Origin: a bacterium
GTDB lineage: Bacteria > Omnitrophota > Gorgyraeia > Aquiviventales > Aquiviventaceae
Length of the DNA stretch: 64,000 nucleotides
Assembly: GCA_036396895.1 (NCBI GenBank)
Contig: DASWKB010000043.1
Span: forward strand, 1,366 to 65,365
Direction: 5' to 3'
The notes beneath the pieces were generated by a model. It saw nothing but the letters and a program-made list of their open reading frames with translations. It searched no databases and was not told the origin of the DNA. Both the position numbers and the translations under genes were made by a program. Below, one piece after another: positions 4,878 through 61,157 of this stretch. Numbering within the stretch: the first letter of the stretch is position 1; each line of letters begins with the position of its first letter.

Positions 4878-4931
4878 CGCGCAAGCATTGTACGCCCCCG
4901 GAGGAGTCTTCTCCAGTCCCGGCGCCACGCG

Positions 4932-5030
4932 GTGGTGTCTCAGTGTGGGACCACCGATGCCACAGCACGTTCACCCTGCTTCGCGCCCTGCGCTTCGCAG
5001 GGGTGGAGCTTTCCTCTGTGTCTCTGTGGT
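4932..5030. repeat. intergenic repeat, family B (copy 1)
   Basis: It shares gttcaccctgcttcgcgccctg(c/t)gcttcgcaggg and tggagct(g)ttcctctgtgtctctgtggt with 12227-12375. Confidence 0.75.
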
Positions 5031-5064
5031 AGCGTATACTGGCGGGCGTGATGGAGCGCTCCCC

Positions 5065-5889
5065 ATGAGTCCAACCGGCCCGACCCCGCCCCGCGCGGAG
5101 CTGCCCCATCAGCACGGGGCGTGGTCCATTCTGGCCGCCGCGTTCCTGCTGGGTCTCGGGGCCGCTCCGGGACCGGTCCCCGGACGCGTGTGGGCCCTGC
5201 TGGCGGCGATCCTGGCCGGGTTCATCGGACGCGAACTCCTCAGCCGGCACCTGCGCCAGGCCGCGCGGACCGGTCCCGCAGCGGCGCGGCGCCTGACGCT
5301 CCTCGCCGTCTGCGGCGCGGTCATCCTGCTGGCATGCTCGTGGCTGATGCTGCGCCATCGCTTGATCTGGCTGGCCGCCTTCGGCGCGATCGAAGCGGCA
5401 TGCGTCCTCATCCTGGGCGGGTTCGAGCGGCGGCGGCGCCATTTGTCGCTCGAGGCGGAGCTGGTCGGCACCGCCGGCTTGAGCCTCGTGACGCTGATCA
5501 CCGCCTATGCGAAGACGGGCGCGCTGTCGGCGGACGCCGTCGGCCTGTGGGCCACGAGCGCGCTCTTCTTCTGCGCCAGCGTCTTCCACGTCCGCTATAT
5601 CGTCCGCCGCCGCATCGAGCGCGCGGGCCCGCTGAGCGCCCGGCTGCGGGCCGGTGCCGTGTCCGTCCTGTACCACGCCGTCGCCGCCGGGGTTATCGCC
5701 GGGATGGGCCTCGCGGGTCTGCTGCCGCCTCTGGCGGGCGTCGCGTGGGTCCCCGTCCTGGGCAAGGCGCTCCTGACGGCGCTGCGGCGGGACACCGGCC
5801 GGCTCGTGATGCGGAGGATCGGACTCACCGAACTTGCCCACACGACCCTGTTCGTCCTGCTCACCATCGTCGCCTGGCGCGCCGCGTAG
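5065..5889 (+). CDS. YwiC-like polytopic membrane protein
   Basis: MSPTGPTPPRAELPHQHGAWSILAAAFLLG followed by multiple TM segments. The track ORF is trimmed to the ATG at 5065. Confidence 0.55.
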   Translation: MSPTGPTPPRAELPHQHGAWSILAAAFLLGLGAAPGPVPGRVWALLAAILAGFIGRELLSRHLRQAARTGPAAARRLTLLAVCGAVILLACSWLMLRHRLIWLAAFGAIEAACVLILGGFERRRRHLSLEAELVGTAGLSLVTLITAYAKTGALSADAVGLWATSALFFCASVFHVRYIVRRRIERAGPLSARLRAGAVSVLYHAVAAGVIAGMGLAGLLPPLAGVAWVPVLGKALLTALRRDTGRLVMRRIGLTELAHTTLFVLLTIVAWRAA

Positions 5890-5904: not shown

Positions 5905-6050
5905 AACCCCGTCCGGGACAGGGGACACGGGACAAGGGACGTGTCGTGCAATCGTTGAACAGGCTTCTACTTTCCAGCTTCCAGCCTCCAGCCTCAAGCC
6001 TCAGACCCGTGTTGACGCACATGCTCCCTGTCCCTTGTCCCACGTCCCAG
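5905..6050. repeat. MITE-like structured repeat, family C (copy 1; 98-nt core 5936-6033)
   Basis: The core is near-identical to 12433-12530. The arms are inverted arrays of GGGACA-type units (gggacaggggacacgggacaaggga / tccctgtcccttgtcccacgtccc). Confidence 0.8.
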
Positions 6051-7018: not shown

Positions 7019-7625
7019 ACCGTCGCTCCTTCATGTGCGCCGTCTCCCCTTCGGCGCCGAGCTGCACGCGCAGCCGGAGGGTGATCGCGCGCGCCTGCGC
7101 AAGCACCGGCTGGTCGAACTCGAACAATCCCCCGCCGTCCGGGCGCGCGTCCAAACCCGCGAGCAGCTCGCGGGTGTCCGCACGGCGCAAGCCCGGCGCG
7201 AGGTCCCTGAGCGATCCCCCCTGCGCGTCCCGGTTCGTGAACACCCGGCGCGTCAGGCGGGAGCCGTCCGCTTCGGACTTACGCTCGTACACGATGAAAT
7301 CGTAGACGCCGTTCCGCTCCCGGCCGGCCGGATCAAACGCGGGGAGCCTCAGGATCAGCGTGTCGCTGCCCGTCCGGGCCTGGCTGCGGTAGGTGCGGCC
7401 GTCCAACACCACGGACTCCAAGGCGCCCGACGCCGCCTGAACGTCCCGCTCGAGGTGCTCCCGGAGCACCAGGACGCCGGTGTGCACCTGCTCACCCCGG
7501 CGCGCCCAGGTCAGCGACCGCGCGGTGCTGAGCAGGAAGTACGACAGCGCGCCGAGCAGCACGGAGGCGATCGCGAGGGTGCAGAGCATCTCGACCAGGG
7601 TGATCCCGCGCCTACCGGATGCCAT
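6987..7625 (-). CDS. prepilin-type N-terminal cleavage/methylation domain protein (GspJ-like pseudopilin)
   Basis: MASGRRG|ITLVEMLCTLAIASVLLGAL is a class III signal peptide with Glu at +5. Confidence 0.7.
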   Translation of the reverse strand: MASGRRGITLVEMLCTLAIASVLLGALSYFLLSTARSLTWARRGEQVHTGVLVLREHLERDVQAASGALESVVLDGRTYRSQARTGSDTLILRLPAFDPAGRERNGVYDFIVYERKSEADGSRLTRRVFTNRDAQGGSLRDLAPGLRRADTRELLAGLDARPDGGGLFEFDQPVLAQARAITLRLRVQLGAEGETAHMKERRYAATFRLRNR

Positions 7626-8058
7626 GGGGATACACCTCGGTGACCAGAGTGACGGGCGCGCCGGGATCGTCCGCGCGCGCGAACTTCACCGTCACTCTGG
7701 CGTGGCGGCCTTCCAGGCGCTCAATGGTCACCTCTCCCACGGCCTCGCCCGCGCGAATCCGAGCGCTCTCGAGCTCGCCGTAGGGGCGGCCGCGCACGCG
7801 CTCCATCTCCCCCTGCGCCAGATTGAGCAGTTCCGTCCTGATCTCGGTGGCGCGCATCATCCGCATGCCGTGCGTCCACGCCATCGAGAGCGACACAAGC
7901 AGGCTGATCGAAATGACCAGCCCGAAGAGGAGATCCACGTAACTGATGCCCAGCCTCCGTTCGCGTACCGCGTACCGCGTCACGCGTAACGTGGGCCCCC
8001 ACGTTCCGGGCTGAAGACAAGAGAGCTGCGAGGAGCCGCGGCGCGGGAGATGCGACAT
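7612..8058 (-). CDS. small pseudopilin-like protein (atypical, Asp at +5)
   Basis: RERRLG|ISYVDLLFGLVISISLLVSL. A GTG at 7983 would give a shorter, more typical leader. The long track ORF 7612..8508 is rejected upstream of 8058. Confidence 0.5.
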   Translation of the reverse strand: MSHLPRRGSSQLSCLQPGTWGPTLRVTRYAVRERRLGISYVDLLFGLVISISLLVSLSMAWTHGMRMMRATEIRTELLNLAQGEMERVRGRPYGELESARIRAGEAVGEVTIERLEGRHARVTVKFARADDPGAPVTLVTEVYPHGIR

Positions 8059-8084
8059 GCCGGAACGCGGGGATGGCGGTCGGA

Positions 8085-9170
8085 TCACTTCCCCACGGAG
8101 AAGGACGTCCAGTCCATGGTCCGGCCCACGCTTGGGCCGAACTCGGGCCGGGCGATGAGCACCCAGACATCGGCCGTGACCGCGTACGTCAGGCCGGAGC
8201 TGAGCGGAGCGCCGTCGTAGAGCGCGGTGGTCTGCGTCAGGTCGTAATTCCCCAACTGCCAAATGGGGTCGCGTACCGCCAGGTCCCACAGCTTGACCAG
8301 GGACACGCCGATGCTGGAGGCGTCTCTCGCCGGGAGCGTCACGTCGGTCCAGGAGAACGCCGGGGTCGGGCTGACGGGCTCTCCGCTCGCGGGGTGGAGC
8401 ATCTGCACGTCCTCGAGCACGCTGCAGAGCAGCTCCGGAGAGCCGGCGCCCTCGTACCCATTGGCGTCGTAGGGCACGATGAAGTGCCGGTAGGTGCCCT
8501 TCTGCCATTCATGGCTCCCGCGCCGCTCGATCAGGGCGAGCTGCCCTCTCTCGCGGCTGATGTAGACGGTGACGCCCGGCTGTCCCAGGAAATCGGTATG
8601 CCATCCGTCCGGCAAATCTCCGCCGATGTCCTGATACAGTCTCAGGCCGGCATCACCCGGCTCCTGGAGATACACGTGGAAGCCCATCACGCGGGTATCG
8701 GTCGGCGGGTAGGACCACAAGAGCTGCTTGTCGGTGTGCAGCTCGAGATCCCAGCCCAACCCGAGCGGAACCATGGCGTGACCCAGCGCCCAGCTGACGC
8801 TGGTCCACTCGGGCGCCGGCAGGTCCACGACCGGCGGTGGCTCCGGATCCGGATCGGGCTCCGGGTCCGGCTCCGGGTCATCGGTCACGCGGATCACCCG
8901 GCCCTGGTTGCCGGTTTCGGACCGGTCACGGTCCTTGTCGTGCCCGTAGGGGTCCCGCATGTCGGGCTTGCCCATATTGCCCTGCCCGCGGGTGTCGTTC
9001 GGATTGTACCAGAAACCCTTCTTATTGGGATTGTCGCCGTTTCCGCCGGACTGCGCCAGCACGGGGCCGGCCCCAAGCGCCAGCACGAGCCAGCCCGCGA
9101 GCAGCAGCAAACACAACACCCTACCCCGTGATCCGGGATAGGGTTTGGCGAACCCGCTCACCAGAAACAT
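8085..9170 (-). CDS. secreted protein of unknown function (first gene of the pseudopilin operon)
   Basis: It has a signal peptide (RGRVLCLLLLAGWLVLALGAGPVLAQ) and a PEPDPEPDPDPEPPP linker. The start is moved to the ATG at 9170 because 9171-9200 of the track ORF belongs to the riboswitch aptamer. Confidence 0.6.
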   Translation of the reverse strand: MFLVSGFAKPYPGSRGRVLCLLLLAGWLVLALGAGPVLAQSGGNGDNPNKKGFWYNPNDTRGQGNMGKPDMRDPYGHDKDRDRSETGNQGRVIRVTDDPEPDPEPDPDPEPPPVVDLPAPEWTSVSWALGHAMVPLGLGWDLELHTDKQLLWSYPPTDTRVMGFHVYLQEPGDAGLRLYQDIGGDLPDGWHTDFLGQPGVTVYISRERGQLALIERRGSHEWQKGTYRHFIVPYDANGYEGAGSPELLCSVLEDVQMLHPASGEPVSPTPAFSWTDVTLPARDASSIGVSLVKLWDLAVRDPIWQLGNYDLTQTTALYDGAPLSSGLTYAVTADVWVLIARPEFGPSVGRTMDWTSFSVGK

Positions 9171-9255
9171 GCGTGTCGCAGCCAGGCTGCCATGGCTCAT
9201 GCCGTAGGCCCTGTAGCTTTGCGCCCCATCCTTTCGGATGGTTTGCCCACACCGC
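9171..9255 (-). ncRNA. c-di-GMP-I (GEMM-I) riboswitch aptamer
   Basis: The RNA reads gcggtgtgGGCAAACCauccGAAAggauGGGGCGCAAAGCuacaGGGCCUAcggcaugagccaugGCAGCCUGGCUGCgacacgc followed directly by AUG. It has the conserved GGCAAAC block, a GNRA-capped P2, the CGCAAAGC block and a GCnnGGnUnC 3' block. Confidence 0.8.
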
Positions 9256-9391
9256 CCGGGTTCGATGAATCTTGAGGGCCCCTGGCGGCTCCACGCAAAG
9301 GATCAAATAACAGGGAGGGCCATGCGTACGCCCGTATCCTCCCTAGCCAAAGCGTACCATATAGCCCAACTAAACGACAAGCCCGCCACAT

Positions 9392-9475
9392 CCGGGACAG
9401 TCACGGTTTTTCTTACTGGTTGATTCAGAAAGAGTTGGAACACCTGGCAAAAACCCGGGACTGTCCCGGGTTTTT
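9392..9475. repeat. REP pair (degenerate ccgggacagtcacgg plus perfect aaaaaCCCGGGACTGTCCCGGGttttt)
   Basis: The perfect copy at 9449-9475 lies 9 nt downstream of the stop at 9484 and also looks like a terminator. Confidence 0.8.
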
Positions 9476-9483
9476 GGCGGCAC

Positions 9484-9897
9484 TTATTTCGAGCGGACGG
9501 CGAGGCCCTCCGCGGTGAGAACGTTATACGGAATCGCGATGATGAACGGGATCACGCTGAAGGCGTTTTCGAGCCCGTAGCGCACGTAAATGACCGAGTC
9601 GGCGCCCGCCTGCCTGGCCCGCTCGCGCAGTTTGTCGTTCAGCATGTGGTAGCCTTCGCGCGTCACGCCGCTCACGTGGATGACGCCGATTTCCTCATAC
9701 GGCCGCGTTAGGTCGCCGGTCGTGAGGACGACCGGCGCGTTCGGCGTGAGAGCCTGATGCCGAGTGCCCGGATTGAGCAGTACGAAATCGTTCCGGCCGG
9801 CCGCGCAACCCGCCAGCGCCATCGACAGGAACGCAATCCCACATGCGGCATGCCGTATTCGGAATGCGGAATCGTCTCGCCGATCGCCGCTCCGCAT
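9484..9897 (-). CDS. lipoprotein (YbjQ/UPF0145-like C-terminal region possible)
   Basis: Lipobox FLSMALAGC and GADSVIYVRYG. The start is chosen at 9897, 8 nt after the upstream stop. Confidence 0.55.
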   Translation of the reverse strand: MRSGDRRDDSAFRIRHAACGIAFLSMALAGCAAGRNDFVLLNPGTRHQALTPNAPVVLTTGDLTRPYEEIGVIHVSGVTREGYHMLNDKLRERARQAGADSVIYVRYGLENAFSVIPFIIAIPYNVLTAEGLAVRSK

Positions 9898-12125: not shown

Positions 12126-12226
12126 TCTGTCGAACCTCCCGTGGTGTGGAGCACGCTCGTGCTCGAACTCCGGAACACCCATTTTAGCACACGGGAGAAT
12201 CGGCCGCGAATGCTCCCCGGCGACGG

Positions 12227-12375
12227 GGGTGTCTCGGTTTGACACCACAGATGCCACAGAGCGTTCACCCTGCTTCGCGCCCTGTGCTTCGCAGGGCAGG
12301 CAGAGGCACAGCGAGAGCCGATGCCAACCGTTCTCTGTGCCTCTGTGGAGCTGTTCCTCTGTGTCTCTGTGGTGT
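12227..12375. repeat. intergenic repeat, family B (copy 2, with about 50-nt internal insertion)
   Basis: See 4932-5030. It is directly followed by the family C copy, forming a roughly 340-bp repeat island. Confidence 0.75.
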
Positions 12376-12414
12376 CGAAGATGACATTGAGACACTACTC
12401 GGGCGACCAGCACC

Positions 12415-12570
12415 CTCCTCCGGGACAGGGGCGGGACGTGTCGTGCAATCGTTGAACAGGCTTCTACTTTCCAGCTTCCAACCTCCAGCCTCCAGCCTCA
12501 GACCCGTGTTGACGCACATGCTCCCTGTCCCTCGTCCCATGTCCCATGTTCCTTGTCCCTTGTCTCATGT
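12415..12570. repeat. MITE-like structured repeat, family C (copy 2; core 12433-12530)
   Basis: By eye the 98-nt core differs from 5936-6033 at only 2 positions (ccagcctccagcctcaagcctc vs ccaacctccagcctccagcctc). Confidence 0.8.
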
Positions 12571-12707: not shown

Positions 12708-13778
12708 ATGGCAGGCATCGATTCGATCCGGAAGGCGCTGGGCGGAGACGCGGACGCGCTGCTCAAGTTCTCGGACCCCAAGGTCAAGAAGGACCGGCTG
12801 CACCTGCCCGGCCCCGATTGGGTGGATCGGATCTTCGGGCCCAGCGACCGCTCGACGCCCGTGCTGCGCAGTCTGCAGGCCCTGTTCGGACACGGCCGGC
12901 TCGCGGGGACGGGGTACCTCTCCATTCTGCCGGTCGACCAGGGGATCGAGCATTCGGCGGCCGCCTCGTTCGCGCCGAACCCGGACTACTTCGACGCGGA
13001 GAACATCGTCAAGCTCGCCGTCGAGGGCGGCTGCAACGCCGTCGCCTCGACGCTGGGCGTGCTGGGCTCGGTCGCGCGCCGCTACGCCCCCAAGATCCCC
13101 TTCATCCTCAAAATCAACCACAACGAGCTGATGACCTACCCGAACAAGTACGACCAGATCCTGTTCGCCAACGTCCAGCAGGCGCAGGACATGGGTGCCG
13201 TTGCGGTGGGAGCGACGATCTACTTCGGCTCGGAGGGGAGCGCCCGCCAGATCGTCGAGATCAGCCAGGCATTCCATGCCGCGCACCAGCTCGGCATGGC
13301 GACGATTTTGTGGTGCTATCTGAGGAACAGCGCCTTCAAGCAGGACGTGGACTACCACCTCGCGGCGGACCTGACCGGCCAGGCCAACCACCTGGGCGTC
13401 ACCATCGAGGCGGACATCATCAAGCAGAAGCTGCCGGAGAACACCGGCGGCTACCCCGCCCTGAATAAAGAGCAGAGCTACGGCAAGACCCACCAGAAGG
13501 TCTACACCGACCTCTCGAGCGACCACCCCATCGATTTGTGCCGCTACCAGGTGCTCAACTGCTACGCCGGCAGGATGGGGCTCATCAACTCGGGTGGGGC
13601 GTCGTCGGGCGAGAACGATCTCGGCGAGGCCGCCCGCACGGCGGTCATCAACAAGCGCGCCGGCGGCCTGGGGCTGATCAGCGGCCGCAAAGCCTTCCAG
13701 CGTCCGATGGCGGAGGGCGTCAAGCTCCTCAACGCCATCCAGGACGTCTATCTCTGCAAGGACGTCACCGTCGCCTGA
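12708..13778 (+). CDS. fbaB: class I fructose-bisphosphate aldolase (FbaB/DhnA type)
   Basis: The sequence runs [12 protein letters not shown]...[13 protein letters not shown]...ILKINHN...IIKQKLP...SGRKAFQRP. It resembles the E. coli FbaB family along its full length. Confidence 0.85.
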
Positions 13779-13796: not shown

Positions 13797-13836
13797 GCGG
13801 GACAGTCACCAAGAAATCCGGGACTGTCCCGGGTTG
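13797..13836. repeat. REP doublet (gggacagtcacc ... tccgggactgtcccggg)
   Basis: It lies between the convergent stops at 13778 and 13839. Confidence 0.8.
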
Positions 13837-17206: not shown

Positions 17207-17336
17207 GAGAGCCTCCCGTTCGGATTCGTGTGCGATGCTCGTGGAATGCACCATCAGCTTACCCGCCCGGAATACCAGCTTCTATGACCTGCATCATATC
17301 CTTTTTCGAGTCCGCCTGCCACAATGCCGCGCAATC

Positions 17337-17365
17337 CAAAAATCCGGGACAGTCCCGGGTTTTTT
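17337..17365. repeat. single REP (aaaaatCCGGGACAGTCCCGGGtttttt)
   Basis: It lies between divergent gene starts (17206 on the minus strand, 17393 on the plus strand). At this locus it cannot be acting as a terminator. Confidence 0.85.
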
Positions 17366-17392
17366 CAGAGGCCGTGGCGGAGGCGGACGGTG

Positions 17393-18895
17393 ATGGAAGC
17401 GATCCTGGACAAAATCGAGCAGCTGGAGCGCGAGCACGACCAGCCGGACCCGGCGCTGCTGCGCCGCTTCAACATCAAGCTGGGCCTGCGCAACGCCGAC
17501 GGCAGCGGAGTCGTGGTCGGCCTGACGGCGAAGGGGACCGTCATCGGGTATGTAAAGGTGCCCAAGGGCGGCGGGACCCCGGCCCCGGAGGTGCTCAACA
17601 ACCTGCACATCCCGGGCCTGCCGTCCGGGACGCACGTCAGCCCCGCGCTCGCCATCTATTACCTGCTCCACGGGATCGTGCCTTCACCGGAGACGCTCAA
17701 GTCGTTCGAAAGCCGCCTGGCGGACCAGCGCGAGTACGAGATCCGACCGGTGGAGGGCGAGCTGTACTACTGCGGATATAACGTCGCGGAGCTGGTGCGC
17801 CACATCGAGTCGGAGCAGCGCTTTGGATTCGAAGAGGCGGCGTATCTCCTGCTCACCGGCGCGCTTCCCTCGCGGCGGGACCTGGGGGCCTTCACGGAGG
17901 AGCTCTCGTCGCGCCGCAGCCTCCCCAAAGCCGCCCAGCGGCTCATCATGTCGGACTCCGCTAACGAAGACCAGATGAACGCGCTCCACCGGTCGGTCTC
18001 GGCGATGAGCCTGTTCGATGAGGACCCGAACTCCCGGAGCCTCCGGGTCATCACGCGCCAGGGCATCGATCTGCTCGCGAAGATTCCGACGATCGTGGCG
18101 TACAACTACCAGGCGACGGCGTTTGCCCGCGGGCACGGCACGGGGCTGATTACCCCTCGGCCTGAGCTGAGCACGGCCGAGAACTTCCTCTACATGCTCA
18201 ATGGGCGCGAGCCGGACCCGCAGCAGGCGCGCCTGCTGGATATGGCCCTCATCCTGCACGCGGAGCACGGCGGGGGGAACAACTCCACCTTCACGGTGCG
18301 GGTGGTCTCCTCGAGCCAGGCCAATACTTACATGGCGCTGACCTCCGGCATCGCGTCGCTAAGCGGGCATCTGCACGGCGGCGCCAACGAGGCCGTGATG
18401 CGCATGATGCGCGGTGTCAAGGACGCCGTCGGGGATTGGACCGACGAGGCGGAGCTTGAAGCGCACCTGCAGCGCCTGCTCGACCGGGAGGCCGGAGACA
18501 AGAGCGGCAAGCTCTACGGCATCGGCCACGCGGTGTACACGCGCTCTGATCCGCGGGCGGGCATTCTCGAGCGGCATGCCGGCGCGCTGGCGGATGCGCT
18601 TGGAAGAACGGACGAGTTCCGGCTGTATCAGCGGACCGCCGCCATCGGCTCGGCGCTGGTGGTCCGGCAGAAAGGCAAGCCGGTCGCCCCGAACGTCGAT
18701 TTCTACTCGGGGCTGGTGTACGACATGCTCGGGATCCCCGTCGAGGTGTTCACGCCGCTCTTCGCGATGGCGCGCGTCGCCGGCTGGACCGCGCACCGGC
18801 TGGAGCAGCTCCTGCAGCAGCGGATTATCCGGCCGGCGTACGTGTCATCCTTTACGATGCCGCATCAGTACGTTCCGCTCTCAGCGCGAACGTAG
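17393..18895 (+). CDS. gltA: citrate synthase family protein
   Basis: LHAEHGGGNNSTF, GHAVYTRSDPR and FYSGLVY. The track ORF is trimmed to the ATG at 17393 because its N-terminus was a REP read-through. Confidence 0.85.
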   Translation: MEAILDKIEQLEREHDQPDPALLRRFNIKLGLRNADGSGVVVGLTAKGTVIGYVKVPKGGGTPAPEVLNNLHIPGLPSGTHVSPALAIYYLLHGIVPSPETLKSFESRLADQREYEIRPVEGELYYCGYNVAELVRHIESEQRFGFEEAAYLLLTGALPSRRDLGAFTEELSSRRSLPKAAQRLIMSDSANEDQMNALHRSVSAMSLFDEDPNSRSLRVITRQGIDLLAKIPTIVAYNYQATAFARGHGTGLITPRPELSTAENFLYMLNGREPDPQQARLLDMALILHAEHGGGNNSTFTVRVVSSSQANTYMALTSGIASLSGHLHGGANEAVMRMMRGVKDAVGDWTDEAELEAHLQRLLDREAGDKSGKLYGIGHAVYTRSDPRAGILERHAGALADALGRTDEFRLYQRTAAIGSALVVRQKGKPVAPNVDFYSGLVYDMLGIPVEVFTPLFAMARVAGWTAHRLEQLLQQRIIRPAYVSSFTMPHQYVPLSART

Positions 18896-19672: not shown

Positions 19673-20493
19673 CCGGGACAGTCCCGGTTTTTAATCCGGG
19701 ACTGTCCCGGGTTTTTCTTGGCGCTTGCGGGGACGGCCGGCTGGCCGCCGCTGCTCGTGTATCCCGTATTCGGAAGCCAGTTGCTTGAGAAATATGGGGG
19801 CGCCAATGGCTCGGCAGGCCTCGGTATTCTTCAGGAAGACTGCCTTGAGTGTTGCGGGGGTCCGAACTCGCAGGAAGGTTCGCCAATCCGGAACCATCGC
19901 GCGAAGCGATTCGTCACCTCGGACGACGATATCGCGGTCACGGTCTCTCGTATGATGGCGAGCGCTCGACCAGGGATACTCCCAGGCCTGCTGCACGAGC
20001 CGGGCCCTCACCGGATTCTGCTCCACGTATCGGACTGCAGCCACTGCATGGGAAGCATCCATCACACTGGACTTGAATCGTCCCTGCCACAGGTGTCCCG
20101 ACCATCCCTTGCGGCGATTAATGCGGATCGCGTATTTCGTATTGACCACACCCAAGCAGCGCGCCAGTGAGTCCAACCGAGCGGGCACGGCAACCAAATG
20201 GACGTGATTGGTCATGAGACAGTACGCCCAGACATCCACTCCACACGCGCGTGTCGCTTCAGCAAGCCAGCGAAGATAGGCACGGCGATCCTGATCAGTG
20301 AAGAAGATCGTCTGACGGCGGTTCCCCCGCTGAACGATATGGTGTGGAAACCCAGGAACAACCTGGCGAGCCGATCGAGGCATAGCCCCCCCCCTTCTGG
20401 ATGCGTCGGGTGGGGAGCCCGATGACGCTGCGTATCATATCAAAGAAATCCGGGACAGTCCCGGTTTTTAATCCGGGACTGTCCCGGGTTTTT
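19673..20493 (-). mobile_element. RAYT gene bracketed by two identical 44-nt REP doublets (REPIN-RAYT unit)
   Basis: ccgggacagtcccggtttttaatccgggactgtcccgggttttt occurs at 19673-19716 and 20450-20493 in the same orientation. Confidence 0.8.
19691..20383 (-). CDS. REP-associated tyrosine transposase (RAYT; IS200/IS605-like Y1 HUH enzyme)
   Basis: The sequence runs MPRSARQVVPGFPHHIVQRGNRRQTIFF...CLMTNHVHLV (HUH)...RYVEQNPVRARLV (catalytic Tyr). The last codons (KPGTVPD) and the stop are encoded by the flanking REP. Confidence 0.85.
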   Translation of the reverse strand: MPRSARQVVPGFPHHIVQRGNRRQTIFFTDQDRRAYLRWLAEATRACGVDVWAYCLMTNHVHLVAVPARLDSLARCLGVVNTKYAIRINRRKGWSGHLWQGRFKSSVMDASHAVAAVRYVEQNPVRARLVQQAWEYPWSSARHHTRDRDRDIVVRGDESLRAMVPDWRTFLRVRTPATLKAVFLKNTEACRAIGAPIFLKQLASEYGIHEQRRPAGRPRKRQEKPGTVPD

Positions 20494-21275: not shown

Positions 21276-22589
21276 TCAGAGATCGCGCAGCAGCGCGTTG
21301 TGCGGAGACTCGACTAACTGCTTGTCGAAGGTCTCCAACGTCTTCCGGAGCCCAGCCAGCGCCCGCGCATCGACCATGTCCGGGTGGTCCTCTCCGCGGG
21401 TTTCGAGGGCGTCCAGCACGGCCTTCACCGTCAGTTTGTCAGTGGCGCGCGCGGGCTGATAGGTCTCGCCGGCCGGGCCGTTCCTCTGCACTTCCGTCAG
21501 GACGCCGGCCTGCACCAGCTCATACAAGACGTCCCGGATCAGGCGGATGGGCGCCTCGAGTTCGCGCGCTAGCGCCCGCGCACTCGCCGGTCCGGCGCCG
21601 CGCTCGAACTGCTTGACGCACAGCACAGCCGCCCGCAACCCCACCAGCCGCTTGAAGCGCACACTGGCGCGCGCGCAGTCCGGCTCGAACTCATATGTTT
21701 CCTCGTTATCGACGGCGAACGACAGCTCCGCGCCGAAGAGCACGATCAGCCAGCTCAGCTGCAGCCACACCAGGAACAGCGGCAGGGCCGCGAAGCCTCC
21801 GTAGACCGCGTTGTACTTCGACATGCCGACTTGGAAATACACGTAGCCCCACTGCACCAGCTGGTAGATCGTGCCGGCCACGATGCCGCCCGTCAGGCCC
21901 GCCCTCCAGCTCACCTTGGTGTTCGGCATGAAGATGTAGAGGAAGGTCAGCAGCAGCCACAGCACGCTGTAGGGCAGCACAGCGAGGAGCGGCAGGACCA
22001 GATTTCGGACCGGCCCGAGCCACTCCAGCTGCGCCATGAGCCCGGTGACCTGACTGGCGAGAAACACCGTCACGCTGCCCGCCAGCGTCAGCAGCACCGG
22101 GCAGATCAGCATGATCGACAGATAATCCGTCATCTTCCTGACCATCGGCCGGCCGGACTTGACCCCCCAGATGTCGTTGAAGGAGCGCTCGATATTCCCC
22201 AGGACCTTGATGATGGTCCAGAACAAGAGCGCTACGCCGATGCCTGCAATCACGCCGCCTTTGGTGTTCGTGAGAAACGCGTCGGTGAATTGCAGCAGCC
22301 ACTGGAGGACCTCCTGTTGATTCTGCAGGCGCTCCCGCAGCATCGCCTCCAGATGGGTCTGGATGCCGAAGCCCTTGGCAATGCCGAACGCCATCGCCAG
22401 CATGGGCACCGTCGAGAGGAGGGTGTAGTACGTCAGTGCGGAGGCCCGGAGCTTGCAGCCGTCCTCGCCGAACCCGCGCATCGCCAAGAGCATCACGCGC
22501 AGCGGGCGGAACGCCAACGCCTGCCGACGGGTCAGTGCACGGCTGCGCAGCCGCCAGAGATCCCGCTTGAGGAACGTCATGAGCCGTTG
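21276..22589 (-). CDS. YihY/BrkB family membrane protein with C-terminal winged-helix-like extension
   Basis: LRASALTYYTLLSTVPMLAM plus six TM segments. The C-terminal roughly 110 aa is soluble (LARELEAPIRLIRDVLYELVQAGVL). Confidence 0.8.
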   Translation of the reverse strand, partial: QRLMTFLKRDLWRLRSRALTRRQALAFRPLRVMLLAMRGFGEDGCKLRASALTYYTLLSTVPMLAMAFGIAKGFGIQTHLEAMLRERLQNQQEVLQWLLQFTDAFLTNTKGGVIAGIGVALLFWTIIKVLGNIERSFNDIWGVKSGRPMVRKMTDYLSIMLICPVLLTLAGSVTVFLASQVTGLMAQLEWLGPVRNLVLPLLAVLPYSVLWLLLTFLYIFMPNTKVSWRAGLTGGIVAGTIYQLVQWGYVYFQVGMSKYNAVYGGFAALPLFLVWLQLSWLIVLFGAELSFAVDNEETYEFEPDCARASVRFKRLVGLRAAVLCVKQFERGAGPASARALARELEAPIRLIRDVLYELVQAGVLTEVQRNGPAGETYQPARATDKLTVKAVLDALETRGEDHPDMVDARALAGLRKTLETFDKQLVESPHNALLRDL

Positions 22590-22654: not shown

Positions 22655-22723
22655 AAAAACCCGGGACTGTCCCGGAAAAACCCGGGACTGTCCCGGGTTT
22701 TAATGCGGGACTGTCCCGGGTTT
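22655..22723. repeat. tandem triplet of REPs (all GGGACTGTCCC orientation)
   Basis: aaaaacccgggactgtcccgg / aaaaacccgggactgtcccgggtttt / aatgcgggactgtcccgggttt. Confidence 0.85.
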
Positions 22724-22733
22724 CTGGAGGAGG

Positions 22734-23366
22734 TTACCAGCCGAGGGCGATGACGGCGAGGCCCGTGAGGACGATGACGAGTCCCGCGAAGGTGTGCGCG
22801 TAGCGCTCCATCCAGGCCGGATGGAAGAGGCGCATCCCCGCGTACGCCAGGCAGCTCTGGCCGACGACCATGGCGATGGTCACCAGGGAGAACACCGCCG
22901 CGACCAGCGTGACCGCCGCCATGCCGCGCTCATACGCCAGGAACATGAGAGGAATCAGCGGCTCGCAGGGGCCGAAGACGAGGATGGCGATCAGCAGCCA
23001 GACCCGGCGCGTCGCGTAGGCCTTGACCGCCTCCTGGATCGAGACGTGCGGATGCGGGTGCTGGGCGTGCTTCAAGCCCCACAGCGCGTATGCCATGCCG
23101 AAGCCGATCAGCAGCCAGATCGCGACGCTGCCCCGCCAGGTCTCGGCGCCCTCGAGCCGATGCACAGCCCAGCCGGCCCACAGCCCGATCATGCCGATGA
23201 GGAGCGAGGAGGCGACATGGCCGATGCCGGCCAGGGTCGAAATGAACGCGAGCCGCCGCATGGGCCAGCGGCTTCCGCGCGCCAGCGCGACGAACGGCAG
23301 CCAGTGATCCGGGGCCACGGCGTGAAAGAACGCCACCGACACCGCAGACAGAATCAACAGTTCCAT
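22734..23366 (-). CDS. polytopic membrane protein, putative metal-ion (Ni/Co-type) transporter
   Basis: FHAVAPDHWLP motif, a His-rich loop (KHAQHPHPH) and 6 TM segments. The functional assignment is tentative. Confidence 0.5.
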   Translation of the reverse strand: MELLILSAVSVAFFHAVAPDHWLPFVALARGSRWPMRRLAFISTLAGIGHVASSLLIGMIGLWAGWAVHRLEGAETWRGSVAIWLLIGFGMAYALWGLKHAQHPHPHVSIQEAVKAYATRRVWLLIAILVFGPCEPLIPLMFLAYERGMAAVTLVAAVFSLVTIAMVVGQSCLAYAGMRLFHPAWMERYAHTFAGLVIVLTGLAVIALGW

Positions 23367-31535: not shown

Positions 31536-31581
31536 ATCGGGGCACTGTCCCTTTTCTTATTCGACAGCGGACGGGGGACCG

Positions 31582-32376: not shown

Positions 32377-32474
32377 GATCCCGTAGTCAAAGGCAAACCC
32401 GGAGAAATCCGGGGACGCAAAGCCACAGGCCTAACCCGAGAGGTATGGCGGCTGGGCTGCCAGCGGGAACGATC
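32377..32474 (+). ncRNA. c-di-GMP-I (GEMM-I) riboswitch aptamer
   Basis: gatcccgtagtcaaaGGCAAACCcggaGAAAtccggGGACGCAAAGCCacaGGCCTAAcccgagaggtatGGCGGCTGGGCTGCCagcgggaacgatc. Every conserved GEMM-I block is present, and a P1 helix can form between gatcccg and cggga(ac)gatc. It lies 124 nt upstream of the sensor kinase ATG. Confidence 0.88.
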
Positions 32475-47982: not shown

Positions 47983-48026
47983 AAAAAAACCCGGGACAGT
48001 CCCGGGTTTTTTTGGGACTGTCCCGG
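47983..48026. repeat. REP doublet (perfect A7/T7-flanked copy plus truncated inverted copy)
   Basis: aaaaaaaCCCGGGACAGTCCCGGGttttttt followed by GGGACTGTCCCGG. Confidence 0.85.
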
Positions 48027-48057: not shown

Positions 48058-48354
48058 TTATTGTCCGAGGTTGCCGAGCCCCTTCTTCATGTCTTTCCCG
48101 GCCTGCTCCATCTGCTTCCCGGCCTTCTTGGCCTGCTTCTCGGCCGCCTTCGCGACCCGTGCGGCCGTGCGCTCCGCCTTGCGCTGCGCAAGCGCGGCGT
48201 CCTTCTCCGTCCCGGACTTGCCGATGGTGGCCATCCAGTCGCCGACCTTGTCGACCACCGTGTCCTGCGCGACCTGGCTCGCCGCCATGACCGCCGGAGC
48301 CCCGATCAGCATCATGGCGCATGCCAGCGCCACCGCAACCCTCATTCGCCTCAT
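48058..48354 (-). CDS. small secreted Lys/Ala-rich helical protein
   Basis: RBS gggagggcagg. It has the signal peptide MRRMRVAVALACAMMLIGAPAVMA. Confidence 0.5.
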   Translation of the reverse strand: MRRMRVAVALACAMMLIGAPAVMAASQVAQDTVVDKVGDWMATIGKSGTEKDAALAQRKAERTAARVAKAAEKQAKKAGKQMEQAGKDMKKGLGNLGQ

Positions 48355-52985: not shown

Positions 52986-53039
52986 GAGTCGCTACCGCCG
53001 TCCAAAGCTTACATCATTCGAAACCCACATGCCCGCCTA

Positions 53040-53112
53040 TTTCGTCCCTGCCGTCCCTTCCGTTTCCCCCGTCCACCTTCCATCGTCTACCGTCCACCTT
53101 CCGCCTTCTACC
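53040..53112. repeat. pyrimidine-skewed short-period repeat (ccgtccaccttcc x2, period 21)
   Basis: The copies are at 53069-53081 and 53090-53102. The region lies in a divergent promoter and shares short words (ccgtccac, ccatcgt) with the arms at 3288-3335. Confidence 0.6.
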
Positions 53113-53269
53113 AGTTCAGCGATCGCACGACGTGCCCCGTTCCCCATGCCCTGTTGGATCGACGCCTCTGTGCTCCCGGATGCGCTTGGAATGCGGCCCG
53201 ACGGACCGTATACTGGTGCCGGAACGCCCGGGGACCTCGAAACACCGCTCATCACACGAACGGAACGCC

Positions 53270-54475
53270 ATGAAGGTGTTGATCCTCACCAACGAGTACC
53301 CGCCGCACATCTACGGCGGCGCCGGCGTGCACGTCGATTATCTCAGCCGGGCGCTCGCCAAGCTGTGCCAGGTCGACGTGCGCTGTTTCGGAGACCAGCG
53401 GGAGCTGCTGGAGTCGCTGTCCGTCACCGGGTTCTCGGTCCATCCCCCGCGCTACACGGCGCCCGAGCCGCTCTGGGGCGTCTTCAGCGCGCTGCAGCGA
53501 TGCCTCGATTTCACAACGACGGGCGACGGGGCGGACCTCGTGCACGCGCACACCTGGTACACCTGCCTCGGCGGGATTCTGAACAAGCTGTCCTACACGA
53601 TCCCGTTCGTGCTGACGACGCATTCCCTCGAACCGCTGCGCCCCTGGAAGCGGGAGCAGCTTGGCGGTGGATACGACGTGAGCTGCTGGGTCGAGCGCGC
53701 GGCGGTGGAAGCCGCCAACGCGCTGGTCGCCGTGTCGGAGGACACGCGCCGGGACATCCTGCGGATTTACCGCCCGGCCCCGGAGAAGGTCCATGTGATT
53801 CACAACGGCATCGACCTGGACGAGTACCGCCCCACCGCGGATCCGGACCGGGTGCGCCCGCTGGGCATCGACCCCGCCAAGCCGTATGTCCTGTGCGTCG
53901 GGCGCCTGACCCGACAGAAAGGGCTCATCCACTTCGCCCGGGCCATCCGGAATCTTCCGGCGGACGTTCAGGCGGTGCTCTACGCCACCGCGCCCGACAC
54001 CAAGGAGATCGAAGCGGAGATCGAAGCGGAGATCGCCGCGCGGCAGCAGGAGCGCCCCGGCGTCGTCTGGATCCGGACCGTGTTGGATCTGCCCACCAAG
54101 GTCGCGCTGTACTCCCACGCCGAGGTGTTCTGCTGCCCTTCCGTGTACGAGCCGTTCGGCATCACGAACCTCGAAGCGATGGCGTGCGAGGTCCCGGTCG
54201 TAGCCAGCGCTGTCGGAGGCATCCGGGAGGTCGTGGTGGACGGAGAGACGGGCGTCCTGGTGCCGCTCGAGACGAATCCCGAGAGCCCGTTCGAGCCGGT
54301 CGATCCCGACCGGTTCGAATCCGATATCGCGAACGGGATCAAGGACGCGATGCGCAGTCCTTCCCGCCGCACGAAGATGGGAAAAGCAGGCCGCCGCCGC
54401 GCCGTCGAGCACTTCAGTTGGGCCGCCACCGCCAAGAAGACCTACGCCCTCTACCAGTCCATCCTCTCCCGCTGA
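53270..54475 (+). CDS. glgA: GT4 glycogen synthase (Corynebacterium-type GlgA family)
   Basis: MKVLILTNEYPPHIYGGAGVHV and CPSVYEPFGITNLEAMA. The track ORF is trimmed to the ATG at 53270. Confidence 0.8.
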   Translation: MKVLILTNEYPPHIYGGAGVHVDYLSRALAKLCQVDVRCFGDQRELLESLSVTGFSVHPPRYTAPEPLWGVFSALQRCLDFTTTGDGADLVHAHTWYTCLGGILNKLSYTIPFVLTTHSLEPLRPWKREQLGGGYDVSCWVERAAVEAANALVAVSEDTRRDILRIYRPAPEKVHVIHNGIDLDEYRPTADPDRVRPLGIDPAKPYVLCVGRLTRQKGLIHFARAIRNLPADVQAVLYATAPDTKEIEAEIEAEIAARQQERPGVVWIRTVLDLPTKVALYSHAEVFCCPSVYEPFGITNLEAMACEVPVVASAVGGIREVVVDGETGVLVPLETNPESPFEPVDPDRFESDIANGIKDAMRSPSRRTKMGKAGRRRAVEHFSWAATAKKTYALYQSILSR

Positions 54476-54503: not shown

Positions 54504-54554
54504 AAAAACCCGGGACTGTCCCGGATAAAAACCCGGGACTGTCCCGGGTTTTTT
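54504..54554. repeat. tandem REP pair
   Basis: aaaaacccgggactgtcccgg ata aaaaacccgggactgtcccgggtttttt, located 29 nt after the glgA stop. Confidence 0.85.
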
Positions 54555-54647: not shown

Positions 54648-54671
54648 AACCCGGGACTGTCCCGGGTTTTT
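54648..54671. repeat. single REP
   Basis: aaCCCGGGACTGTCCCGGGttttt. Confidence 0.85.
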
Positions 54672-54868
54672 CGGGCTGCCGAACTGGCGTCCCTGTGAGC
54701 TGACGCCATGCGGTACCTCTGCGGAACGTTCAACGTCCGGCACCATGCCGGTCAGGCAGTGGATGCCCTCACAGCGGGGGGACTGCAAGACCCCCACCTG
54801 GGACACGTTCACGAGAACTTCGGCCAAGCGTTCCACCCCGTCCGGGTCATCCCCGTCCGGGATGGTGC

Positions 54869-55072
54869 TTACGACTTGAGGACGTTCGACGCCTGCGGGC
54901 CCTTGGGGCCGTTCGTGACCTCGAACTGCACCGTCTCACCTTCCCGGAGGGACTTGAAGCCCTCTCCCTGGATGGCCGTGTGGTGGACGAACACGTCCTT
55001 CGAGCCGTCCTCTGGGCTGATAAAGCCGTAGCCCTTCTGGTCGCTAAACCACTTCACGGTACCTTTTGCCAT
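54869..55072 (-). CDS. cspA: cold-shock protein (CspA family)
   Basis: [18 protein letters not shown]...DVFVHH contains the RNP1 and RNP2 motifs. Confidence 0.95.
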
Positions 55073-55496: not shown

Positions 55497-55579
55497 GCTG
55501 GAAGCTAGATGCTGGAGGCTGGAATGATCGGTTGTTGTGCACGTCCACTCATTCCAGCTTCAAGCTTCCAGCCTCCAGC
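55497..55579. repeat. imperfect hairpin built from CCAGC(T/C)T units
   Basis: The arms are gctggaagctagatgctggaggctggaatga and tcattccagcttcaagcttccagcctccagc. The 25-mer ttccagcttcaagcttccagcctcc (55552-55576) is identical to 61107-61131. Confidence 0.7.
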
Positions 55580-55648
55580 TTCTCGCCATTCGCCTGATGG
55601 ACAGACGGACCAAACGGCCTGACGCCTCCGTGGTGTATACTGAGGGCC

Positions 55649-60994: not shown

Positions 60995-61135
60995 GTCCAT
61001 TCCGTCAGTCCCGTCATTTCCGTCTGTCCGTCACCACGCCGAGGTGTGCCGACGGAATAGACGGACTGACGGAGAAGACGGAAGAGACGGCACGCTGGAT
61101 TCGACGTTCCAGCTTCAAGCTTCCAGCCTCCGGCT
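60995..61135. repeat. modular hairpin: CCGTC-unit arms (60995-61032 / 61051-61090) followed by the CCAGCTT-unit module
   Basis: The arms show block-wise complementarity in their gacgg/ccgtc units. The 15-mer gacggaatagacgga also occurs, reverse-complemented, at 63886-63900. Confidence 0.65.
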
Positions 61136-61157
61136 TCAGACCAGATTGGAGGCCGAC

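Follow-up and report, generated by a model that had tools for sequence, protein, structure and literature searches.

The 64,000-nt stretch analysed here (contig DASWKB010000043.1 of assembly GCA_036396895.1, referred to as the window) carries at positions 19673-20493 a single intact gene for a predicted Y1 transposase of the TIRYT family, enclosed by two copies of the same 44-mer, and the palindrome from which this 44-mer is built recurs in the intergenic DNA of the window. We consider this probably a TIRtron- or REPtron-type locus, that is, a TIRYT gene whose end motif became a hairpin and was amplified, and the most likely driver of the amplification would be the encoded HUH/Tyr enzyme, working in trans on hairpins in single-stranded DNA. 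TIRtrons with self-complementary inverted repeats, moderate amplification and dimers were already described in 2013 (PMC3733652), and the locus is a clean further example.

The Y1 transposase gene and its family

The gene (19691..20383, minus strand) is an intact open reading frame encoding 230 aa, and the Y1 hallmarks that a first-pass annotation of this DNA had recognized in it are present in the translation, namely PHHIVQRGNRRQ, NHVHLV, and RYVEQNPVRARL. Along the 230-aa protein, the HUH motif NHVH occupies residues 59-62 and is followed by LWQ (98-100), YVEQNP with the catalytic tyrosine (119-124), and PWSSA (137-141), while the C-terminal part consists of a conserved helical extension and then a disordered basic tail (211-230). 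The protein matches the Pfam family Y1_Tnp at 46 bits (cut-off 23), and more than 7,800 database proteins of ~220-230 aa, 44-59% identical to it, align with it from end to end. These relatives show no variation in the HUH residues, the tyrosine, LWQ, NP, or WSS, and the basic GRPxK tail that closes the C-terminal extension is conserved among them. Since a single-sequence search of the PDB gave just chance ribosomal matches, a family-profile search was needed to relate the protein to solved structures, and this ranked E. coli TnpA_REP first (4ER8; E=3e-5), with IS608 and ISDra2 TnpA at about 1e-3 (2e-3 for ISDra2). The AlphaFold (AF2) model (pLDDT 88.9, with residues 211-230 disordered) likewise had 4ER8 as its top Foldseek match (E=4e-9), with IS608 and ISDra2 TnpA at ~1e-5.

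The protein was compared by BLASTP with sequences, named TIRYTs among them, that Di Nocera et al. 2013 give in their Additional file 5 (PMC3733652). It aligned with GSU2396 of Geobacter at 48% identity over 204 aa (E=4e-63) and with BBta_5382 at 44% identity (E=3e-54), and the other full-length TIRYT matches were CC_1445 (39%), Acid345_2776 (40%), and Pcar_3049, whereas canonical REP-associated tyrosine transposases (RAYTs; REP, repetitive extragenic palindrome) from E. coli, Pseudomonas, and Stenotrophomonas aligned over the core only (E=2e-9 to 4e-3). Shared with TIRYT proteins are the full-length homology, the size of ~230 aa, NHVH, WQ, Y..NP, WSS, and an extension ending in GRPRK (PMC3733652; PMC6006769; PMC5581495). 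Quentin et al. 2018 take their subclass 2.1 to be the same as Bertels RAYT Group 1 and to include the majority of Di Nocera TIRYT proteins, and by their Table 1 its signature is NHVH, W[EQ], Y[IV]xxNP, and SS in the proximal tail, the median length being 238 aa (PMC6006769); the signature motifs and the length are all found in the window protein. Taken together, these alignments and motifs place the protein, over its full length, in the TIRYT family (TnpA_Y1 subclass 2.1, Bertels RAYT Group 1). Group 1 RAYTs are, to our knowledge, the largest and least understood branch of RAYT-like enzymes, and we know of no TIRYT or Group 1 protein with a demonstrated activity or substrate.

The composition of the gene differs from that of 23 host genes in both overall GC (60.0% vs 68.8 +/- 2.5%) and third-position GC (GC3; 63.6% vs 86.8%). 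Because the gene has 60% GC and the host genes 69%, this contrast suggests that the TIRYT gene was acquired horizontally. The protein cluster has one member, present on two assemblies of apparently the same 75-kb contig, and tblastn found no second gene copy in ~0.5 Mb of fetched loci. A check for a singleton gene had been proposed from the first reading, and one copy was seen within the 75-kb contig.

The flanking doublets, the family end motif, and the dispersed palindrome

Two exact and equally oriented copies of the 44-mer CCGGGACAGTCCCGGTTTTTAATCCGGGACTGTCCCGGGTTTTT lie at 19673-19716 and 20450-20493, as had been described, and identity between the two flanks ends precisely at the 44-mer borders. 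Also in agreement with the first description, the 44-mer consists of two inverted copies of a 15-nt palindrome with a single asymmetric base, the centre, which is A in unit 1 and T in unit 2. The upstream (5') doublet (20450..20493) lies 8 nt past the stop (20501) of the preceding hypothetical gene and comprises, on the plus strand, units at 20450-20464 (centre A) and 20473-20487 (centre T), with the spacer TTTTTAAT between them and then GTTTTT; read in gene orientation, it is a GGGACAG-type unit, ATTAAAAA, and a CTGTCCC-type unit. From this doublet to the ATG runs a 66-nt leader (20384..20449, minus strand) with a G-rich run right before the start codon that, on sequence alone, resembles a ribosome-binding site. 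The downstream (3') doublet (19673..19716) has exactly the sequence and orientation of the upstream one and gives the gene its last 7-8 codons (..EKPGTVPD) and TAA. The gene ends ..CAA GAA AAA CCC GGG ACA GTC CCG GAT TAA (QEKPGTVPD*), with the final 23 nt of the open reading frame and the TAA stop inside the 3' 44-mer, which bears out the earlier statement that the repeat supplies the stop codon and the last 7 codons.

The usual full unit is AAAAAC-CCGGGAC[A/T]GTCCCGG-GTTTTT, and no GT[AG]G foot was found at the hairpin, the unit flanks being AAAAAC/GTTTTT or AAT. Folded as single-stranded DNA, the 27-mer reaches -12.7 kcal/mol (z = -4.1) and the 44-mer -20.5 kcal/mol (z = -8.5). No Rfam family matched the repeat, and a literature search for the repeat sequences returned unrelated primers and similar matches only. 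Removal of the gene and one 44-mer would leave a normal post-gene doublet between the hypothetical gene (stop 20501) and a YgjP-like gene (start 19659), and we infer from this position between identical direct 44-mers that the gene may have integrated at a doublet already there, or that a doublet was duplicated.

The relation of the palindrome to the gene family emerged from a comparison of flanks in the DNA of eight homologues from unrelated metagenomes or metagenome-assembled genomes, a set drawn without the closest relatives, P0002 and P0003, and without P0099. At most of these loci, inverted repeats with the core GGGGACAGCCAC lie on both sides of the gene, one upstream and one overlapping or abutting the stop codon. 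Inverted repeats with the core GGGACAGCCAC bracket the gene in P0008, P0068, P0013, P0059, and P0017, and in these five homologues the left copy lies 58-261 nt upstream of the ATG, with the right copy at or overlapping the stop. The flanks of P0004 read GGGACAGG, the end sequence of a relative is GGGGACAGCCACT, P0120 and the second Y1 gene in locus L055 have GGGGAC variants, and P0083 showed no clear flanking repeat. Both the layout and the GGGGWSAS motif are those that Di Nocera et al. described for TIRtrons (PMC3733652). In the window, cGGGACAG is present on both sides of the gene (matching GGGGWSAS at 7/8 positions) and the stop codon falls within the 3' repeat, a right end overlapping the gene 3' end that the window shares with TIRtrons and that Di Nocera et al. 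termed '3'ov' (PMC3733652). The right repeat is read in frame as GTC CCC GAx TGA (..VP[DE]) in P0004, P0008, and P0068 and as ACA GTC CCG GAT TAA (..TVPD) in the window; since the frame is the same in these homologues, the overlap of stop and repeat is inherited within the family and did not arise locally by accident, and the palindrome is positionally homologous to the family end. Read against these ends, the window palindrome is the family end motif (GGGGWSAS, here cGGGACAG) made self-complementary, and a unit can be read as the conserved end half (GGGAC-A/T-G) joined to its own complement. The two 44-mers are direct, yet each holds one unit of either polarity, so that an outer inverted pair of a left-type and a right-type unit exists around the gene.

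Gene-less pairs of inverted repeats in left-then-right order were also present in relatives (L052 20498/20527 and L053 9634/9672), and tandem right-end copies lie 3' of several homologue genes. Three further features of the homologue loci may be recorded here. L055 has two tandem Y1_Tnp genes (156-818 and 1204-1878), 39% and 49% identical to the window protein, each with an inverted-repeat pair of its own (ATTAATTCGGGGGACA and AGGGACAGCCACT). L052 (10001-13300) and L053 (6507-9700) encode identical P0068 proteins, and their sequences diverge directly downstream: L053 has an intact ComEC-like gene (7195-9699) and then the gene-less inverted-repeat pair, L052 other small open reading frames and a single repeat copy, a difference that could be a rearrangement at the right end of the element. 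Between the left inverted repeat and the ATG (L051 2900-3000, L052 9900-10000) lies a hairpin that is conserved and terminator-like (GCAGGrGAGT..CTCTCTCCTGCG, then a T-run) and that may insulate the homologue genes from read-through; no equivalent of this pre-ATG hairpin was found in the window.

Within the window, the 15-nt core CCGGGACWGTCCCGG had 17 matches with at most 2 mismatches, compared with 0.70 +/- 0.81 expected (0/100 shuffles reached 17), and the 11-mer core GGGACWGTCCC had 18 matches with at most 1 mismatch, compared with 1.8 expected. The palindrome is the largest repeat family of the window, in line with its earlier description as the dominant repeat, and its units occupy 10 loci, the two flanks and 8 others, exactly the number that had been given as approximate. 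All 18 units are intergenic except for the overlap with the TIRYT gene's own tail. Nine of the 10 loci lie just past gene ends, tandem or convergent, the exception being the unit at 17344, which lies between divergent gene starts.

The order of units within pairs was strongly biased. When adjacent units no more than 100 nt apart were counted in the window and in same-genome contigs, 11 pairs had the order A then T, none T then A, and 10 were direct (A-then-T vs T-then-A, two-sided binomial p ~0.001, or ~0.002 with the identical 44-mers counted once). A then T corresponds to a left-end-type unit (GGGACAG) followed by a right-end-type unit (CTGTCCC), the order of the ends around the gene, and is thus a TIRtron without its gene. 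Since either order would give the same long hairpin, the 11:0 bias points to the origin of the pairs and not to their folding, and the inverted pairs look like cargo-less mini-elements made of a left end and a right end. A common spacer in the inverted pairs spaced 62-64 nt apart was considered and dropped, there being just weak similarity between two copies.

Among the terminator-like sites between 9 and 24 kb of the window, 8/14 are palindrome units (shuffles gave 5.7 sites). The A5-GC stem-T5 build of the units and their usual location at gene 3' ends suggest that they are probably kept or tolerated as terminators, and this lends support to bidirectional termination as a secondary function, or at least to a position in which such hairpins are tolerated.

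Beyond the window, the 20-mer CCGGGACWGTCCCGGGTTTT gave five singletons across 185,579 reference species genomes, which is chance level; the family as such is absent from them and is not a trait shared generally by a described lineage. A metagenome scan recovered 44 stretches with the repeat, which fall into two groups. The first consists of Ga0214471_* contigs from the same metagenome (66-69% GC) and shares the window's units, doublets, and triplets; two of these contigs, L029 and L039, also have a second, unrelated 180-nt repeat in common with the window, which assigns at least these two to its genome or to a very near one. In the second group, the FWPV01/FWWM01 contigs (~62% GC), the core lies inside a different composite repeat of ~64 nt, GAAAACCCTGGGACAGTCCCCGCCGCGTAGGAACGCGGCGCAATCCGGGACAGTCCCGGGTTTTC, with at least 18 copies in a different organism (L006-L049, e.g. 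L037 ~1716-1790). This composite repeat is built of two direct GGGACAGTCCC cores around a CGCCGCG-TAGGAA-CGCGGCG hairpin, bounded by GAAAACCC...GGGTTTTC, and folds as single-stranded DNA at -28.5 kcal/mol (z = -7.3).

Origin of the repeats

The sequence of events that we propose starts from a single intact gene for a predicted Y1 HUH single-strand DNA endonuclease/ligase between its cognate end sequences. The conserved half GGGAC-A/T-G would have turned self-complementary, giving (AAAAAC)CCGGGAC[A/T]GTCCCGG(GTTTTT), and copies of the palindromic unit would then have accumulated between genes, singly or in twos and threes. If IS200/IS605 TnpA and E. coli TnpA_REP are a guide, the units may fold into hairpins on transiently single-stranded DNA. 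Action on single-stranded hairpins is established for IS608 TnpA, ISDra2 TnpA, and E. coli TnpA_REP. The enzyme would recognize the hairpin, cut the A/T-rich foot through its HUH/Tyr site, and rejoin the strands, with the outcome that mini-elements of a left end and a right end would be moved or copied, preferably beside existing hairpins.

Precedent for such a locus comes from Di Nocera et al. 2013, in which some TIRYTs have self-complementary inverted repeats that form moderately abundant families with dimers or clusters, for instance S. maltophilia ORF 1152 (PMC3733652). The window differs from described TIRtrons in that its end motif has collapsed to a near-perfect palindrome of 15-27 nt, in that each flank is a doublet of a left-type and a right-type unit and the two flanks are direct, not inverted, and in its high unit density of ~1 per 3.6 kb; Bertels et al. 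found Group 1 flanking 16-mers at only ~12 copies genome-wide (PMC5581495).

Several points weigh against a TIRYT-driven amplification. The flanking 44-mers are direct, whereas the TIRtrons of relatives have inverted repeats. The gene looks recent (GC3 64% vs 87%), yet the repeats are numerous and near-identical, which implies either a rapid burst or repeats that are older than the gene. The core also lies within the 64-nt composite repeat of another organism, of ~62% GC, and no linked Y1 gene was found in the ~250 kb fetched from that FWPV01/FWWM01 organism. According to Quentin et al. 2018, subclass 2.1 genes are not adjoined by REP-like sequences (PMC6006769), and amplification is therefore not a general trait of the TIRYT family. 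The repeat counts cover the 64-kb window and contigs selected by their matches, and both the mobilization of the repeats by the TIRYT protein and the role of the gene as their source are steps that we infer.

As the main alternative, the palindromes could be host terminators, or sites for a host factor, that spread or persist independently of the gene, with the Y1 gene as a foreign passenger that inserted in one of them and duplicated the doublet. Some insertion sequences do target REPs or hairpins, and the A5-GC stem-T5 form of the unit, its share of the terminator-like sites (8/14), and the location of 9/10 loci just past gene ends speak for such an origin. It also fits the foreign GC of the gene next to abundant and uniform repeats, the direct 44-mer flanks, the ordinary post-gene doublet that remains once the gene and one copy are taken out, and the presence of the core in a second organism, where the fetched loci showed no linked gene. 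However, GGGACAG/CTGTCCC is the conserved end motif of the gene family in unrelated organisms, where it is placed alike and read in one frame at the stop (PMC3733652), and because position and reading frame match across unrelated organisms, a chance association of motif and gene is unlikely. Terminator function does not predict the 11:0 orientation bias, the unit at 17344 lies in a divergent promoter region, and the palindrome is not a common terminator type, since it was not found as a family in 185,579 reference species genomes. We therefore regard independent spread of host sites as unlikely. The Neisseria DNA uptake sequence offers a comparison, being a dispersed short repeat, often in inverted pairs, that can act as a terminator; unlike the units of the window, its pairs are not known to be linked to a Y1 enzyme gene.

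Canonical REP/RAYT systems, for which the terms REPtron and REPIN are used, are said to have been described by Nunvar in 2010, Bertels and Rainey in 2011, and Ton-Hoang in 2012. Such a system (Bertels Groups 2 and 3; Quentin subclasses 2.2 and 2.5) would combine a domesticated, vertically inherited gene with GTAG-footed REPINs. The first-pass annotation had called the protein a RAYT and its repeat a REP, and the part of this that stood is membership of the Y1 HUH, RAYT-like class, with the Y---NP motif and E. coli TnpA_REP as the best solved relative, together with a dispersed, extragenic, multi-copy palindrome (17-18 units at 10 loci in 64 kb, compared with 0.7-1.8 expected). With the E. coli and Pseudomonas systems (TnpA_REP, 4ER8), the window further shares the enzyme fold, the catalytic motifs, an apparently single-copy gene with doublets of a dispersed intergenic palindrome at both flanks, and inverted, REPIN-like doublets as the apparent recurring unit. 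In contrast, the protein scores 59.4 bits against the NCBIfam model REP_Tyr_transpos (NF047646), below its cut-off of 80, and has 230 aa with the TIRYT C-terminal extension, and E. coli and Pseudomonas RAYTs align with it in the core only; it is 65 aa longer, with ~20% identity to E. coli RayT. Canonical REPs are defined by a 5' GT[AG]G foot (PMC6006769, PMC3733652), a guide tetranucleotide that the window hairpins do not have, and the gene composition, which suggests transfer, speaks against long vertical residence. The score under the NCBIfam RAYT threshold and the missing GT[AG]G foot of the repeats led us to reject a canonical GTAG-REP RAYT, a very improbable identity here, and the element called a REP appears to be the TIRYT end motif made palindromic.

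An autonomous insertion sequence of the IS200/IS605 type, with the palindromes as its subterminal hairpins, would share the Pfam Y1_Tnp match, the hairpins at both ends, and the foreign GC. The protein scored 17.6 bits against the NCBIfam IS200 model (NF033573), below its cut-off of 55, and no tnpB was found within 10 kb on either side of the gene. Moreover, the tyrosine motif is Y---NP (N at +4) and not Y---Q, the length is 230 aa compared with ~150 aa for core-only enzymes, there is one copy in the 75-kb contig, and the ends are identical direct repeats and not a distinct left and right. Plasmid-borne relatives are rare and distant (29/72,556 plasmid records, every one below 46% identity). 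IS200/IS605 TnpA (subclass 1.1) was accordingly rejected on model score, tyrosine motif, length, tnpB, and copy number, and we rate it as extremely improbable. What the window does share with IS200/IS605 TnpA and its cargo-less (MITE- or PATE-like) derivatives is a Y1 HUH enzyme, presumed recognition of single-stranded hairpins, and gene-less mini-elements of left and right ends, although its ends are symmetric palindromes and not distinct left and right hairpins.

A TIRYT gene with an amplified end motif thus remains the origin that we favour, and it has several implications. The locus qualifies, or contradicts, the generalization that subclass 2.1 has no REP-like partners (PMC6006769). It provides clean candidate substrates for a large enzyme family, in the form of a 15-27-nt hairpin derived from the conserved end motif and a 44-nt doublet, and the left-then-right orientation rule yields a natural prediction for the enzyme. 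It may also be a case of repeat hairpins that double as terminators. More speculatively, Group 1 RAYTs might repeatedly have founded REPIN-like hairpin populations from one conserved end motif (GGGAC-A/T-G), with the hairpins co-opted as bidirectional terminators. The two forms that can be cited for repeated founding are the 15-27-nt palindrome in a 68%-GC bacterium and the 64-nt composite with two cores in a 62%-GC organism, and we hold this broader proposal to be possible but doubtful; if it were true, a terminator family would have been seeded by a transposase.

Repeat loci, neighbouring genes, and other features of the window

The remaining palindrome loci vary in the number and state of their units. 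An inverted pair at 9392/9455 (9392..9469; centre A with 1 mismatch, then centre T; spacing 63 nt) lies directly upstream of a cyclic di-GMP (c-di-GMP) riboswitch at 9174-9257, and a degenerate centre-A unit with an intact centre-T unit at 13797/13818 (13797..13832) lies between convergent genes that end at 13778 and 13839. A triplet in direct orientation at 22661/22682/22705 (22661..22719) separates the tandem minus-strand genes 22734..23366 and 21276..22580. The degenerate single unit GGCACTGTCCC (31539..31553) begins 4 nt past the stop of a 1532-aa peptidase S8 gene, and an inverted pair at 47991/48012 (47991..48026; A then T, with unit 2 degenerate at its 5' end) lies between a gene stop at 48058 and the next start at ~47903. 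A direct pair at 54510/54533 (54510..54547) lies 35 nt past the stop of the gene 52988..54475, and a single unit (54651..54665) lies upstream of the open reading frame 54699..55031. The single unit at 17344..17358 occupies a divergent promoter region (starts 17206 and 17393), which is not a terminator position. In the mechanical list of open reading frames, citrate synthase runs upstream through this palindrome (MPRNPKIRDSPGFF..., window 17324-17392); since the called start at 17393 (MEAILDK...) is likely the real one, we count the unit as intergenic.

The neighbourhood of the TIRYT gene was read on contig k141_1419456 (ENA ERZ27256989; 74,963 bp), where the genes within 10 kb on each side are of a housekeeping, chromosomal type (YgjP-like, citrate synthase, BrkB). 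The nearest named relatives of the citrate synthase are from Candidatus Omnitrophica (62% and 54% identity) and Nitrospirota (~52%).

The window has two c-di-GMP-I riboswitches (RF01051), at 32382-32464 (plus strand; 77.7 bits) and 9174-9257 (minus strand; 61.7 bits), upstream of a 1174-aa open reading frame and of an open reading frame with its low-coordinate end at 8085, respectively. The second repeat family, of ~180 nt, has copies that are 88-93% identical (GGTGGTGTCTCAGTTTGACACCACAGATGCCACAG...TTCTCTGTGCCTCTGTGG...), with internal inverted segments and no Rfam match, at 4925-5110 and 12219-12410 of the window, 11715-11905 of L039, and 2866-3056 of L029; it could be a miniature inverted-repeat transposable element (MITE) or an unannotated small RNA. 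A 114-nt pair, 96% identical, lies at 5936-6049 and 12433-12546. Tracts with a 7-nt period, (CTTCCAG/CCTCCAG)n, occur at four or more loci (5958-6002, 12455-12499, 55552-55596, and 61093-61137), two of which adjoin the 180-nt repeat.

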